Shown piece by piece: positions 20,410-24,458 of a stretch of DNA of 32,013 nucleotides (positions within the stretch are counted from its first letter, which is position 1; every line of letters begins with the position of its first letter). Source of the DNA: Candidatus Tayloriibacteriota bacterium (GTDB lineage Bacteria > Patescibacteriota > Minisyncoccia > Phycocordibacterales > PALSA-1337); assembly GCA_903893855.1 (NCBI GenBank), contig CAITNV010000042.1, positions 1 to 32,013 of the forward strand, written 5' to 3'. Under the pieces are notes generated by a model. It ran no database searches. It was not told where the DNA came from and saw nothing but the letters and a program-made list of their open reading frames with translations. The position numbers were made by a program, and so were the translations under genes.

Positions 20410-20480
20410 CAGTGAAAACATACCTTTTTATTGGTACTTTTCACTGATATTTGACATAATGTGGTGAAAACGTGTATAAT
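20410..20480 (+). promoter_or_regulatory. strong sigma70 promoter (TTGACA-18-TATAAT) with three GTGAAAAC boxes (one 9-bp inverted pair and one inside the spacer)
   Basis: CAGTGAAAA at 20410-20418 pairs with TTTTCACTG at 20438-20446. GTGAAAAC recurs at 20464-20471, between the -35 (20451-20456) and the -10 (20475-20480). Confidence 0.55.
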
Positions 20481-20514
20481 GTACAGTAAGTTTTAATATA
20501 GAACCAAAACACAA

Positions 20515-21417
20515 ATGGCTACCACAAAATCAATTAAAGAAAAGCTCCAAGAGCTTAAAAAAGAATATGACACTCTTCGCCAAGGCAAAGAGTCTCTTTT
20601 GGTACTCGTAGATGAGGCTGAGGTTGCTGAAGCCGTGTTCAACTCGAATGCTATTGAAAATTCAACACTTACACTCAAGGAAACAGAAAAAATTCTTTTG
20701 GAAATGGAAGTTGCTCGTGACGTATCGGTCCGAGAAGTATTCGAAGCAAAGAATCTTGCACGAGTGGTTGCTTATATTAGAAACAAATCTCAGGAATCAG
20801 AAATAAATAAAGAAATTATTTTACTTCTTCACAAAATGCTTATTGGCGGCATCGACGACAGCATTGCTGGACGATTCAGAACTATTGGTGAGTATGTAAG
20901 AGTTGGTACGCATGTAGCTCCAGCACCAGAACACGTAGAAAGATTGATCGAAGCAACACTTCTTGAATACACAGCTCATCTAGCAGACTTCTTTATCGAT
21001 AAGATTGCAAAATTTCATCTTGAATTTGAAACGGTCCATCCATTCTGCGATGGTAACGGTCGTATAGGTCGTGTACTCATAAATTACCAACTCCAAAGAC
21101 TTGGTTTTCCTGGAATTATTATTCGTGACAAAGAAAAGAAAGACTACTACAGCACTTTTGCAGAATATAGAGACAAGAAAACTGCAAAAGAGATGGAAAA
21201 GATTATGGCACTCTCCCTCATGGAGTCACTTCACAAAAGAATTACTTATCTCCAAGGTGAAAAAATTATTACTCTTTCTGAGTATGTAAAATTGAATTCA
21301 AAATCTGGTCCGGCAATGGCAAATGCTGCTCGTCGACAGAAGATTCCTGCTTTCCGTGAGAAAGGAGTCTGGAAGATCGCTGAGGGATTTATCTATAACT
21401 TAGGAGAAGAAAAATAA
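20515..21417 (+). CDS. Fic family protein (class II, with N-terminal inhibitory SNAIEN motif)
   Basis: 300 aa. Canonical Fic motif HPFCDGNGRIGR. FNSNAIENSTL matches the [ST]xxIE[GN] motif. Confidence 0.9.
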   Translation: MATTKSIKEKLQELKKEYDTLRQGKESLLVLVDEAEVAEAVFNSNAIENSTLTLKETEKILLEMEVARDVSVREVFEAKNLARVVAYIRNKSQESEINKEIILLLHKMLIGGIDDSIAGRFRTIGEYVRVGTHVAPAPEHVERLIEATLLEYTAHLADFFIDKIAKFHLEFETVHPFCDGNGRIGRVLINYQLQRLGFPGIIIRDKEKKDYYSTFAEYRDKKTAKEMEKIMALSLMESLHKRITYLQGEKIITLSEYVKLNSKSGPAMANAARRQKIPAFREKGVWKIAEGFIYNLGEEK

Positions 21418-21421
21418 TTAT

Positions 21422-21773: not shown

Positions 21774-22145
21774 ATGAACAAAAAAGAAGTATCGGCAAGA
21801 ATAAATATTGAGAATCTTACGAAAAGAATAATTTCTTTTCGTGACGCTAGAGATTGGAAGCAATTTCATAATCCAAAAGATGTTGCACTTTCTCTTGTGC
21901 TGGAAGCTGGTGAAGTTATGGAACATTTCCAATGGAAAAATAAGGAAGAGATGGAAAAATATGTAAAAGAAAATAAGGGTGCTATAGGAGAAGAATTAGC
22001 GGACGTTTTGTACTGGGTATTACTCATGAGTCATGATTTAAATATTGATGTACTCGATGCTCTTGAAAAGAAAATAAAAATAAACGAAGACAAGTATCCG
22101 GTAGAAAAAGCTACAGGCAAGCATACCAAGTACAACAAACTTTAA
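21774..22145 (+). CDS. MazG-like nucleotide pyrophosphohydrolase (all-alpha NTP-PPase)
   Basis: RDWKQFHNPKDVALSLVLEAGEVMEHFQW...EELADVLYWVLLMSHDLNIDVLDALEKKIKINEDKY matches MazG/YpjD-type motifs. The start is taken at the second ATG (21774) to avoid overlap with the upstream gene. Confidence 0.7.
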   Translation: MNKKEVSARINIENLTKRIISFRDARDWKQFHNPKDVALSLVLEAGEVMEHFQWKNKEEMEKYVKENKGAIGEELADVLYWVLLMSHDLNIDVLDALEKKIKINEDKYPVEKATGKHTKYNKL

Positions 22146-22149
22146 TACT

Positions 22150-24174
22150 ATGGCTGATATAAAAACATTTTCTTTTGATAAAAGTAAGTTTGATGAGATA
22201 AAAGCCTACAAATTCGGCCGTAATTGGCCAGTTGTTTATATCATAAAAAACGAAGAGGAAATTTATATCGGTCAAACAGTGAATGCTTACTATAGAAGTA
22301 AACAACACTCTGAAAATCCAGAAAGGCTCAAATTAAAAGACATGCACATCATCACCGATGAAGAATTTAATATTTCTGCAGCTTTGGATATAGAATCATG
22401 GCTTATTCAATATATTGCTGCTGACGGAAAATACATAATTCAAAATAGTAATGGCGGACTAAAAAATCATAATTATTACGATAAGGTTAAGTATAAAACA
22501 AAATTTGAAATAGCTTGGGATAATTTAAGAGAGCAAGGAATTGTTAAAAATACCCTTGAAGACTTAAAGAATAGTGATTTGTTTAAATACTCACCGTACA
22601 AGTCTCTAACGGAGGATCAATTCTCTGTTGCTAAAAAGATTTTTAAAGATATAAAAAATAATCCAACTAACACCATTATCGTTAATGGAAAACCAGGAAC
22701 AGGTAAAACAATTCTCGCAACATACCTTTTTAAATATTTAAAAGAGCAGGAAGAGACTAAAAATCTTAAAATTGGTCTTGTTGTGCCTATGGCCAGTTTG
22801 CGTAAGACAATAGGTAAAGTTTTCTCAAAGATTAAGGGTCTGAAATCAAACATGGTAATTGGTCCTAATGATGTAGTAAAAGATAATTATGACATTTTAA
22901 TTGTTGATGAATCACATAGGCTGCAAAGAAGAAAAGGTATTATGGGCTATCAGGCCTATGATAATGTAAATAAAAAGTTAGGATTAAACAAAGAGGCTAC
23001 TCAGCTTGAATGGATTGTTCAGTCATCAAAACATCAAGTACTTTTATATGATGAAAATCAAAGTGTTAAACCTGCAGATATTAGACCAGTTGATTTCAAA
23101 AATTTAAAACCGAGAAACTATCAGCTCAGTACCCAAATGCGCGTTGAAGCCGGAGTTGATTTTATAAATTTTATAGAAGATATTTTTGATTTTAAAATAC
23201 CAAGTGTCACAGATTTTTCAAACTATGATTTCAGACTTTTTGATAACGCTGAGGAGATGGTTAATGAAATTAAATTGAAAGATAAGCAGTATAAGTTATC
23301 TCGTGTGGTGGCTGGTTATGCGTGGCCCTGGCATACAAAGCCAGGTAGTAAATCTACTCAAGAGCATGATATTGAAATAGGTGAACTTAAATTAGTATGG
23401 AACTCCACAGCGCAGGACTGGGTAAACTCTAAAAATGCAATAAATGAAGTTGGATGCATCCATACGGTACAAGGATATGACCTAAATTATGTCGGTGTGA
23501 TAATTGGACCAGAATTTTACTATGACACAGTAAAAAATAAATTTTGTGTGGACAAAGAAAAGTATTTTGACACAAATGGTCGTAATGGCATTACTGATCC
23601 TAGTGAATTAGAGAAATATGTAATAAATATTTATAAGACTTTATTAACTCGAGGAATAAAAGGAACTTACATTTATATAGTAGATGAGAATCTTAGAAAT
23701 TACTTTAAGAAGATACTGACTGGGAAAAAAGTATTTAATGAGATCATAAAATCTCCTTATTCTGGAATTATGATAAACATTCCGTTATTTGATTCTGTTG
23801 GTTGTGGTGAACTGATGTTTGCCGATCCTACAGTGCAGGAAATGATTCCTGTAAAAAGTGAACTGATGTCTAAAGGTTCAAAATATTTTGTCTTGAGAAC
23901 ATCTGGCAACTCAATGAATTTAGCTGGAATCAATGATGGAGACCTTGTGCTTTGTAGAAAAAATTATCACCCCGAAGAAGGAAATAATGTTGTGGCACTT
24001 ATTGGTGACGATGCGACCATAAAAGAATATCGTCGAGAAAACGGTATCGTGGTACTAAAACCAAAATCAAGCAATCCAACACATAAACCATTACGGTTTA
24101 CGAATAATGATGAAGTTAAGGTGCAAGGTGTAGTTATTTGTGTGATAAAAAATAATAACGAAAAACTATTATGA
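22150..24174 (+). CDS. three-domain fusion: N-terminal GIY-YIG nuclease, central DUF2075 / SF1-like P-loop ATPase, C-terminal LexA-like S24 self-cleaving peptidase
   Basis: GIY-YIG: VVYIIKNEEEIYIGQT...YYRSKQH...ESW. Walker A GKPGTGKT; Walker B LIVDESHRL; motif IHTVQGYDLNYVGVIIG. S24: VGCGEL (LexA VAAGEP), GNSMNLAGINDGDLVLC (LexA GDSMIDAGILDGDLLAV), ATIKEY (LexA VTVKRL), QGVVICVIK (LexA EGLAVGVIR). Confidence 0.85.
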   Translation: MADIKTFSFDKSKFDEIKAYKFGRNWPVVYIIKNEEEIYIGQTVNAYYRSKQHSENPERLKLKDMHIITDEEFNISAALDIESWLIQYIAADGKYIIQNSNGGLKNHNYYDKVKYKTKFEIAWDNLREQGIVKNTLEDLKNSDLFKYSPYKSLTEDQFSVAKKIFKDIKNNPTNTIIVNGKPGTGKTILATYLFKYLKEQEETKNLKIGLVVPMASLRKTIGKVFSKIKGLKSNMVIGPNDVVKDNYDILIVDESHRLQRRKGIMGYQAYDNVNKKLGLNKEATQLEWIVQSSKHQVLLYDENQSVKPADIRPVDFKNLKPRNYQLSTQMRVEAGVDFINFIEDIFDFKIPSVTDFSNYDFRLFDNAEEMVNEIKLKDKQYKLSRVVAGYAWPWHTKPGSKSTQEHDIEIGELKLVWNSTAQDWVNSKNAINEVGCIHTVQGYDLNYVGVIIGPEFYYDTVKNKFCVDKEKYFDTNGRNGITDPSELEKYVINIYKTLLTRGIKGTYIYIVDENLRNYFKKILTGKKVFNEIIKSPYSGIMINIPLFDSVGCGELMFADPTVQEMIPVKSELMSKGSKYFVLRTSGNSMNLAGINDGDLVLCRKNYHPEEGNNVVALIGDDATIKEYRRENGIVVLKPKSSNPTHKPLRFTNNDEVKVQGVVICVIKNNNEKLL

Positions 24175-24458
24175 CCATTGACTTTGCCTGCTACGCCCAC
24201 ATTTGGTTTGAAAAAGGAGACGATAAGACCAAGCGAGCGATACTTTCATGTTTAGGCTCGAACCTCACCATAAAAGGCAAAAAACTCTTTGTTAATTACC
24301 ATTCTTTCATAAAGACGATGATAAAAAGTCGAGAGGCGGTTATCAAAGAAATTGACTCCGCTCGAACCTCAAAACTATCAAGCCATATAAGACAAAACCC
24401 CACAAATTGTGAGGTTTCGTCACTAGGGCTCCGGGAGCAGGGATCGGTCACGAGTTAA
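24171..24458 (+). CDS. hypothetical small protein; its 3' end is encoded by the tRNA-Asn-derived direct repeat
   Basis: 95-aa ORF overlapping the upstream stop by ATGA. The last ~10 codons run through the 18-bp tRNA-derived repeat, so its C-terminus may be an artefact or a junction product. Confidence 0.35.
   Translation: MTIDFACYAHIWFEKGDDKTKRAILSCLGSNLTIKGKKLFVNYHSFIKTMIKSREAVIKEIDSARTSKLSSHIRQNPTNCEVSSLGLREQGSVTS
24429..24446 (-). repeat. 18-bp direct repeat of the tRNA-Asn 3' end (att-like)
   Basis: CTCCGGGAGCAGGGATCG is identical to 25877-25894, inside the tRNA gene. The match extends imperfectly to 24-25 bp. Confidence 0.7.

Follow-up and report, generated by a model that had tools for sequence, protein, structure and literature searches.

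Defence proteins that carry an N-terminal nuclease and a DUF2075/SF1B helicase on one polypeptide are known from Staphylococcus epidermidis (Nhi, SERP2475) and Bacillus cereus (Nhi-like), and AbiO is built in the same manner. The S24 domain, with its serine in G(D/N)SM, its lysine in TIK and a scissile site that is Cys-Gly in UmuD, is familiar from LexA, UmuD and lambda cI. The all-alpha MazG-like family includes DCTPP1/RS21-C6, and for other conflict systems it has been proposed that MazG-like effectors act on deoxynucleoside triphosphates (dNTPs); defence enzymes that deplete dNTPs include dCTP deaminase and dGTPase. A nuclease-helicase, an S24 domain and a MazG-like protein come together in a five-gene cluster at positions 20,410 to 24,458 of a 32,013-nt stretch of DNA from a Candidatus Tayloriibacteriota bacterium (assembly GCA_903893855.1, contig CAITNV010000042.1, forward strand; the whole stretch is referred to as the window). 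One gene of the cluster encodes a protein, hereafter the fusion protein, that joins a GIY-YIG nuclease, a DUF2075 helicase and an S24 tail, and the gene directly before it encodes a MazG-like protein. The open reading frames (ORFs) of the cluster are:

20515-21417, + strand: Fic protein, 300 aa
21422-21769, + strand: Trypco2-like protein, 115 aa
21774-22145, + strand: MazG-like protein, 123 aa from its ATG; an upstream TTG at 21753 is open too
22150-24174, + strand: fusion protein, 674 aa
24171-24458, + strand: orf5, 95 aa

The first-pass annotation, made from the letters of the window, had read these genes as a composite defence island of horizontal origin and possibly as a single multi-effector system under one repressor. 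We consider it probable that the segment is instead a mosaic whose defence-type modules are independent and horizontally mobile, with the MazG-like and fusion genes as the only conserved multi-gene unit. The comparison covers 80 genome loci fetched for the fusion protein, mostly from metagenome-assembled genomes (MAGs) of Patescibacteria, the candidate phyla radiation (CPR), with a few MAGs from other phyla; all proteins of the window were searched against these loci, and the neighbouring ORFs there were clustered into families. Domain calls come from Pfam, PADLOC and NCBIfam profiles and structural matches from Foldseek searches with AlphaFold2 (AF2) models. When the co-occurrence of the five genes was checked in this sample, only the MazG-like and fusion genes were found to travel together: a MazG-like gene stands immediately upstream of the fusion homologue in 78 of the 80 genomes, the Trypco2-like gene adjoins it in two (once upstream, once downstream), and Fic and orf5 do so in none (0/80 each).

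The MazG-like and fusion gene pair

The spacing of the pair is as constant as its order. Some 65 of 71 loci (approximately) have a gap of 0-6 nt between the two genes, and the gap upstream of the MazG-like gene is variable, often with a promoter of its own. No other family of neighbouring ORFs accompanies the fusion gene in more than 16 of the 80 loci; toxin-antitoxin (TA) genes of the SocA/Panacea and PemK types recur nearby, as do Mrr, YgjP, ArsR and TspO, and HNH and restriction-modification (RM) genes are also met. The two genes remain adjacent at 31-41% identity, including on megaplasmids of the Bacillus cereus group (31-36% identity), where they are annotated as a "nucleotide pyrophosphohydrolase" followed by a "DUF2075 domain-containing protein". 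They also adjoin each other on one contig labelled as phage and on five from IMG/VR, in two of which (L151 and L152) their order is inverted, and adjacency that survives inversion is good evidence for functional coupling. Horizontal origin, as the first-pass annotation had supposed, is supported by base composition, the pair being AT-richer than its flanks in 57 of 59 loci. Among GTDB representative genomes, a relative is encoded by at least 590 of the first 600 pattern matches, mostly in Patescibacteria/CPR and otherwise on Bacillus megaplasmids and in other groups. This is thus a two-gene module of hundreds of species that lacks an experimental description in the searchable literature, where we found no account of a DUF2075/Schlafen-type helicase paired with MazG or S24.

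Many of the 71 MazG-like genes have their own TTGTAAAAA...TGTGGTAGAAT promoter. In a number of loci (L004, L006, L007, L011, L016, L017, L021, L029 and others) a promoter in the 40 nt upstream of the start takes the form TTG(T/A)AAAAA(CCC)-N-TGTGG(G/T)A(G/T)AAT; because it ends just 7-10 nt before the ATG, this position suggests that the corresponding mRNAs are leaderless or nearly so. The spacer of these promoters contains a small CCC...GGG dyad.

The MazG-like protein matches PF12643 well above the cut-off (1.3e-16; 61.1 bits against 27), so this part of the domain assignment made at first reading stands. Its fold is all-alpha, with an archaeal pyrophosphatase (4qgp, 5e-19) and DCTPP1/RS21-C6 (5e-18) as the closest solved relatives, and the metal-binding EXXE/EXXD motifs, LEAGEVME and EELAD, are conserved across phyla in 75 sequences. 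We therefore describe it, from these matches, as a predicted DCTPP1-like nucleoside triphosphate (NTP) pyrophosphatase, apparently coupled translationally to the fusion gene. The parts of the fusion protein are:

aa ~25-105: GIY-YIG nuclease
aa ~150-523: SLFN-g3/DUF2075 SF1B helicase
aa 524-545: flexible linker
aa 545-667: S24 autopeptidase
codons 23803..23808, + strand: predicted self-cleavage site Cys552-Gly553, aligned with LexA Ala84-Gly85 and UmuD Cys24-Gly25

The helicase and peptidase assignments are strong (SLFN-g3_helicase/DUF2075, PF09848, 8e-67; Peptidase_S24, 1e-24). The GIY-YIG match is weak in this particular protein (0.0079), with distant relatives exceeding the Pfam threshold; residues Y30, Y39, G41, R49, E82 and N99, together with the Walker A and B motifs and the arginine residues, are invariant in 78 of 78 homologues. 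An AF2 model of the protein (mean predicted local distance difference test, pLDDT, 78.9), in which linker residues 526-538 are of low confidence, matches RecD2, Upf1, SLFN11 (7zel) and Dda, and separately the C-terminal domain of LexA. The S24 part aligns to LexA 74-197 with the cleavage loop included. Cys552-Gly553 is placed at the position of Ala84-Gly85 because IPLFDSVGCGELMF corresponds to LexA LPLVGRVAAGEPLL; the scissile context (V/A)(G/P)CGE(L/P) resembles VAAGEPLL of LexA, and the predicted catalytic dyad Ser588/Lys625 aligns with S119 and K156. All four residues (C552, G553, S588 and K625) are invariant in 53 of 53 S24-bearing homologues, and the domain behaves as a functionally constrained one wherever it is present.

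Its presence is nevertheless not uniform among the relatives, 54 of 80 having the S24 domain, in two subtypes, and 26 lacking it. The three-domain architecture recurs in many distant 50%-identity clusters, and the identities of S24 and core are uncoupled: 86% for the core and 46% for S24 in L003, 58% and 70% in L054, and a 78% identical core with no S24 at all in L028. Since the domain varies independently of the core and is missing from 26 of the 80 relatives, it appears to be an exchangeable regulatory add-on. In two MAG contigs labelled as Gammaproteobacteria (L064, 618-968, minus strand; L070, 2672-3055, minus strand) a MazG/DUF2075 pair lacking S24 has a second S24 gene nearby on the other strand; this gene could supply the S24 function in trans or be a paralogue.

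Judging from its domains, we read the pair as a hitherto uncharacterised form of the nuclease-helicase defence known from Nhi, one that RecA and single-stranded DNA (ssDNA) may switch on. It is tempting to go further and to propose, tentatively, a self-cleaving Schlafen-type effector that is triggered by RecA-ssDNA on replicating or damaged phage DNA and works with a dedicated DCTPP1-like dNTP pyrophosphatase. In such a scheme the fusion protein, a nuclease-helicase, would load onto foreign DNA during its replication and degrade it, the S24 tail would keep the protein as an inactive dimer until self-cleavage at Cys552-Gly553, and RecA-ssDNA filaments or another cue of infection or damage would stimulate that cleavage and free the active enzyme. 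The MazG-like partner would meanwhile hydrolyse (d)NTPs, either starving phage replication or removing modified dNTPs. A RecA trigger is plausible in Patescibacteria, whose genomes generally have genes for both RecA and LexA.

Several observations weigh against this reading of the pair. PADLOC has no model for it, and the helicase half gives partial matches to models of other systems, Nhi over aa 141-390 (3.8e-16) and AbiO over aa 104-391 (1.2e-16). The core is unusually conserved for a defence gene, at 65-94% identity across CPR classes. Finally, the S24 domain is dispensable in a third of the relatives, so a RecA trigger could not be general and would be a regulatory layer only.

The high conservation would fit a role in the cell's own economy, namely an SOS-type module of DNA repair and nucleotide-pool sanitising rather than an antiviral one. 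The S24 domain, LexA-type and with an intact cleavage site, would tie such a module to DNA damage; the nuclease would be UvrC-like, and the MazG-like protein would do house-cleaning, as its DCTPP1-type relatives do. A repair function seems unlikely, however, for a pair that is patchy in distribution, variable in context and lower in GC than its flanks in nearly all loci compared, that has TA systems, Mrr, HNH and RM genes for neighbours, that is found on Bacillus megaplasmids and a few viral contigs, and the helicase half of which matches the AbiO and Nhi defence models. The small first gene and large second gene, their translational coupling and strict co-inheritance, and their position among TA loci would also be compatible with an addiction module resembling TA systems, with the nuclease-helicase as toxin and the MazG-like protein as its antidote, acting directly or by way of a nucleotide signal. 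We regard this as a rather remote option, as the catalytic EXXE/EXXD residues are kept across phyla, pointing to an enzymatic function and not to one of binding alone, and as L151 and L152 have the two genes in inverted order. Defence by a nuclease-helicase and its pyrophosphatase partner thus remains the reading of the pair that we prefer.

Probably independent blocks and the boundaries of the cluster

At the level of layout the first-pass annotation was accurate. The five co-oriented ORFs, all on the plus strand, span 20515-24458; each of the first three junctions leaves 4 nt between the genes, and the final one, between the fusion gene and orf5, is an ATGA overlap. The cluster is indeed AT-richer than the hpf/fmt/def/priA block that follows it, with a GC content of 32.4% for the MazG-like and fusion genes, 34.2% for the Trypco2-like gene and 38.4% for Fic, compared with 44.6% for 26000-32013. 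A scan of 19800-26200 revealed no internal promoter scoring 10/12 or better behind the Fic promoter. Because the downstream genes have no visible promoters of their own here, their co-transcription from the Fic promoter is plausible.

Related loci suggest that this compact arrangement was assembled from separate blocks. The closest relative, L001, encodes a fusion protein 93% identical to that of the window, and the DNA held in common is confined to 21409-24150 (the Trypco2-like, MazG-like and fusion genes, 87%) and a 48-bp palindrome; in place of Fic it has an AbiEi/AbiEii toxin-antitoxin pair, packed equally tightly. L084, from the window's own lineage, has a Fic gene with 99% identity that is followed by MazG, with no Trypco2-like gene. 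A second lineage (L098) has Fic, MazG and fusion genes in this order at lower identity. In L093, which lacks the Trypco2-MazG-fusion block, Fic is directly followed by the orf5 region, and tRNA-Asn is intact. In L130, Fic and the Trypco2-like gene are followed by an 872-aa HsdR-like helicase, and this helicase (L130, 760-800) and the MazG-like gene (window, 21774-21808) begin with the same ~10-12 codons (MNKKEASARI). This shared start marks the 3' end of the Trypco2-like gene as a site of recombination. Since the blocks vary independently across loci, the five genes are best understood as independent cassettes that share islands and not as one system.

A single multi-effector defence system under one repressor would account for the tight co-oriented packing behind the only strong promoter, with no internal one at the threshold used, and for the recurrence of Fic beside the pair: Fic adjoins it in L084 and L098 and lies 3 kb away, with other genes in between, in L146 and L147, two loci that form a biased sample. 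These four loci weigh against complete independence and indicate that some lineage-specific association of Fic with the pair exists; a functional synergy between them is conceivable. As an account of the whole cluster, one system is nonetheless very improbable. The adjacency counts given above contradict it, as do the AbiE genes that take the place of Fic in the closest relative, the lack of a Trypco2-like gene in L084 despite its almost identical Fic, and the lack of the pair in L093. Fic has no conserved neighbour among 47 loci, its operator is Fic-specific (see below), orf5 is a remnant, and equally tight packing is seen with unrelated genes in L001. The broader notion of a composite defence island has fared better, with a complete SoFic gene and a PDC-S01 candidate elsewhere on the contig and with the modules found among TA and restriction genes in other genomes.

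On the mosaic reading, successive cassette insertions beside tRNA-Asn would have packed the modules into one apparent transcription unit. The first module would be a solitary, self-inhibited Fic with its own operator-gated promoter, the second a Trypco2-like passenger, and the third the MazG-like and nuclease-helicase pair; the second and third, lacking promoters of their own here, probably ride on the Fic promoter. Their shared transcription looks like an accident of cassette insertion, not like the design of a system. For small CPR genomes more generally, this cautions against taking operon-like packing as evidence of a functional system.

The Trypco2-like protein falls just short of the Pfam gathering cut-off for PF19631 (24.0 against 24.2 bits). 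The original domain call is kept at family level by its homologues, several of which carry PF19631 at 60-70% identity; NCBI names one a "trypco2 family protein". The family comprises 189 matches of about 115 aa, stand-alone proteins whose genes also lie inside type I RM operons, beside a DpnII system, or alone, and from this distribution the gene is apparently a promiscuous passenger of CPR defence loci. It repeatedly adjoins large restriction-type enzymes. EcSofic has been reported to have a small antitoxin encoded downstream (PMC12249575), and a corresponding role of the Trypco2-like protein as antitoxin of Fic, by analogy with AS1 downstream of E. coli SoFic, is suggested by its position 4 nt behind Fic both here and in L130; we rejected it on distribution as highly improbable, as the gene does not follow Fic in some 50 of the 53 loci with Fic (L084 included), occurs without Fic in type I RM operons and elsewhere, and is unrelated to the 47-aa AS1, and as this Fic has an inhibitory helix of its own.

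The limits of the cluster are marked by the following features:

20278..20325, no strand: imperfect palindrome of 48 bp, TTGTGACT...AGTCACAA, which separates the upstream gene from the promoter of Fic
24428..24446, no strand: copy of the tRNA-Asn 3' end, 19 nt and perfect; the distal direct repeat, marking the original end of the tRNA gene and the right-hand limit of the cluster
24898-25212, - strand: ORF in the insertion, 104 aa
25187-25582, - strand: ORF in the insertion, 131 aa, membrane-like

The palindrome reappears as an isolated conserved patch in L001 (5942-5989) and L084 (2114-2200), before different first genes (AbiEi and Fic, respectively), and may be a terminator or a boundary of cassettes or recombination. 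It was also considered as a repeated attC-like element and rejected as such: it occurs once in the window, its pattern was found in only 1 of the first 83 loci (L001), and blastn adds L084.

On the right-hand side, a perfect 19-nt direct repeat (24428-24446 and 25876-25894) represents the 3' end of tRNA-Asn(GTT). The 1.43 kb between the copies (24447-25875, ~50% GC) contain the two small minus-strand ORFs, which have no Pfam matches, and the area includes two imperfect GC-rich repeats of ~100 nt (24428-24561 and 25727-25824). Because the tRNA is uninterrupted in L093, this segment is an insertion into the 3' end of tRNA-Asn. No integrase was found in it, Rfam and ARAGORN find only tRNA-Asn as structured RNA in 24450-25870, and neither an integrase nor a further direct repeat was found to bound the AT-rich region of 13.9-24.4 kb.

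The last gene of the cluster, proposed at first as a small gene of the operon, has an open frame with an ATGA overlap, as described, and is best treated as the truncated remnant of a longer gene, not as a conserved one. Its counterpart in L093 is the 3' part of a 137-aa ORF (identity 82% for protein and 87% for DNA), and the substitutions by codon position (15/3/13) indicate that the sequence was once coding. Its N-terminal part is displaced here, and its end reads through the old tRNA-Asn terminator into the tRNA fragment. orf5 would thus be the leftover of a gene displaced by the Trypco2-MazG-fusion block.

Three further genes of the contig deserve mention. An AAA_14 + DUF4143 ATPase (15039-16325, plus strand), in the same AT-rich stretch of 13.9-24.4 kb, matches the PADLOC candidate PDC-S01 (5e-102). 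The N-terminus of a SWIM zinc-finger protein (1644-2375, plus strand) matches the candidate PDC-S62 (7.5e-16). At 30252-31823, on the minus strand, lies an unusual fusion, an EPSP-synthase-family (MurA-like) protein with an N-terminal HTH_3 domain.

The Fic gene and its promoter

The features upstream of Fic are:

20404..20452, no strand: operator inverted repeat directly upstream of the -35 box, with GTGAA at 20412-20416 and TTCAC at 20440-20444, 23 nt apart
20451-20480, + strand: sigma-70-type promoter, TTGACA (20451-20456), 18-nt spacer and TATAAT (20475-20480)
20464-20468: third half-site, GTGAA, within the promoter spacer

The strong promoter and the repeats that decorate it, both noted at first reading, were confirmed. 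The promoter scores 12/12, is the sole perfect match within 19800-26200 and has its predicted transcription start at ~20487. The window has exactly two copies of the repeat GTGAAAAC (20412 and 20464; 1.41 occurrences expected per window), both of which belong to the promoter region, and a third copy on the opposite strand, GTGAAAAG, matches in 7 of 8 positions. The arms of the inverted repeat CAGTGAAAA/TTTTCACTG match without exception over 9 nt and at 93% over 15 nt (20404-20418 and 20438-20452).

Conservation upstream of Fic homologues, down to ~60% protein identity, gives these repeats their significance. The layout GTKAA-N22/23-TTMAC, TTGAC(A), GTKAA in the spacer and a -10 box was found with a strict pattern in 31 of 39 Fic upstream regions (34 distinct sequences), compared with 0.0 in shuffled controls, so that chance is not a sufficient explanation. 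The core is identical at all three half-sites in 29 of the 31 pattern-positive regions, one Fic subclade has GTTAA at all three, and most of the remaining regions have visibly degenerate versions. The repeats are accordingly predicted to be a real operator with the core GTKAA, belonging to the Fic gene wherever it occurs. The proposal of one repressor that recognises GTGAAAAC thus holds in so far as the operator is predicted to be real, and fails in so far as it is Fic-specific: no copy was found upstream of 71 MazG-like genes elsewhere (0/71), and GTGAAAAC was rejected as a regulator site of the pair. With its fixed geometry and with half-sites that change in concert at all three positions, the operator represents a clean, testable and conserved regulatory architecture.

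The Fic protein itself has a Fic domain match of 4.8e-20, an intact active-site motif HxFx(D/E)GNGRxxR (HPFCDGNGRIGR) and the N-terminal inhibitory motif (S/T)xxxE(G/N), with SNAIEN aligned to TVAIEG of FICD. It looks like a solitary class II-type AMPylase, competent for catalysis and self-inhibited. Matches to its fold are FICD, BT_2513 and SoFic, and the PADLOC models of PDC-S04 fit it best (3.5e-34). With these proteins (SoFic, PDC-S04 and FICD) it has in common a solitary gene, the intact motif, the inhibitory helix and a small C-terminal domain. Full-length SoFic differs in having a Fic_N domain, which this Fic lacks: the SoFic model is covered only over 32-267 of its 361 positions, and the NCBIfam SoFic score of 30 bits compares with a cut-off of 550, placing the protein outside that family. 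In the literature we found no report of a conserved three-site operator for SoFic. A second Fic gene of the contig (2458-3600, plus strand) has both Fic_N and Fic domains and a full-length PADLOC SoFic match (4.5e-109), on account of which it is the contig's true SoFic.

Repressor bound at the three half-sites would occlude RNA polymerase, and the most economical candidate for that repressor is Fic itself, acting through its C-terminal domain. Among 53 metagenome loci with Fic homologues (47 in the neighbour test), Fic is the sole gene conserved in cis with the operator. Its last ~50 residues are almost invariant among homologues (NAARRQxIPAFREKGVWKI), and residues 250-290 are predicted with pLDDT 80-93 as a beta-alpha-alpha-beta-beta, winged-helix-like element, the full Fic model being poor (pLDDT 56). 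For these reasons autorepression is the simplest model, which we keep as a suggestion from modelling because sequence searches miss the C-terminal domain and no residue in it tracks the operator switch. Both results weigh against it. As a helix-turn-helix (HTH), the domain has no significant PDB or Pfam match, the support for an HTH being its predicted secondary structure, and the four columns that discriminate GTGAA from GTTAA proteins (5, 85, 195 and 225) all lie outside the putative DNA-binding domain. Given this lack of covariation with the operator switch, the repressor could be encoded elsewhere.

Comparison with known systems

Among described systems, the nuclease-helicases come closest to the pair. 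The fold of Nhi has been reported to resemble Dda, Upf1 and RecD2, as does that of the fusion protein, and both occur in defence islands. The nuclease of Nhi is of the PD-(D/E)xK type, whereas that of the fusion protein is GIY-YIG, and there is no full-length similarity. Nhi and Nhi-like proteins act as single genes, while the fusion protein almost always has its MazG-like partner and in two thirds of cases a C-terminal S24 domain as well. The "Nhi-like" system of Millman was considered as a member of the same family and rejected, its N-terminal nuclease being different and the gene having been cloned alone. The obligate pyrophosphatase partner and the SOS-type self-cleaving domain can be classed as two features unreported for nuclease-helicase defence.

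Both of these features have their own counterparts. DCTPP1 stands alone, whereas the MazG-like enzyme of the pair is the dedicated partner of a nuclease-helicase. The S24 tail has the active-site and cleavage-site residues of LexA, UmuD and lambda cI, but what precedes the cleavage site is different: an HTH domain in LexA and cI, a 24-residue arm in UmuD and a 550-aa nuclease-helicase in the fusion protein. The N-terminal winged HTH of a LexA-type repressor is absent, the first 545 aa being GIY-YIG and helicase. If the proposed switch is real, this would be the first case in which an SOS sensor domain directly controls an effector enzyme and not a repressor.

The likeness to group 3 Schlafen proteins is of particular interest. 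SLFN11 and the fusion protein share the helicase family and the combination of nuclease and helicase in one protein, although the nuclease of SLFN11 is unrelated to the GIY-YIG domain. A link to ssDNA would be made through S24 in the fusion protein and is made through RPA binding in SLFN11. The module unites a helicase-nuclease of the Schlafen type, a self-cleaving sensor of the SOS type and a nucleotide pyrophosphatase, which are usually the subjects of separate studies. Should the S24 tail indeed switch the enzyme on, it would represent a new coupling of DNA-damage or infection sensing to an effector and a tractable bacterial model of Schlafen-like proteins, and the pair would be a bacterial counterpart of the SLFN11 response to ssDNA and replication stress.

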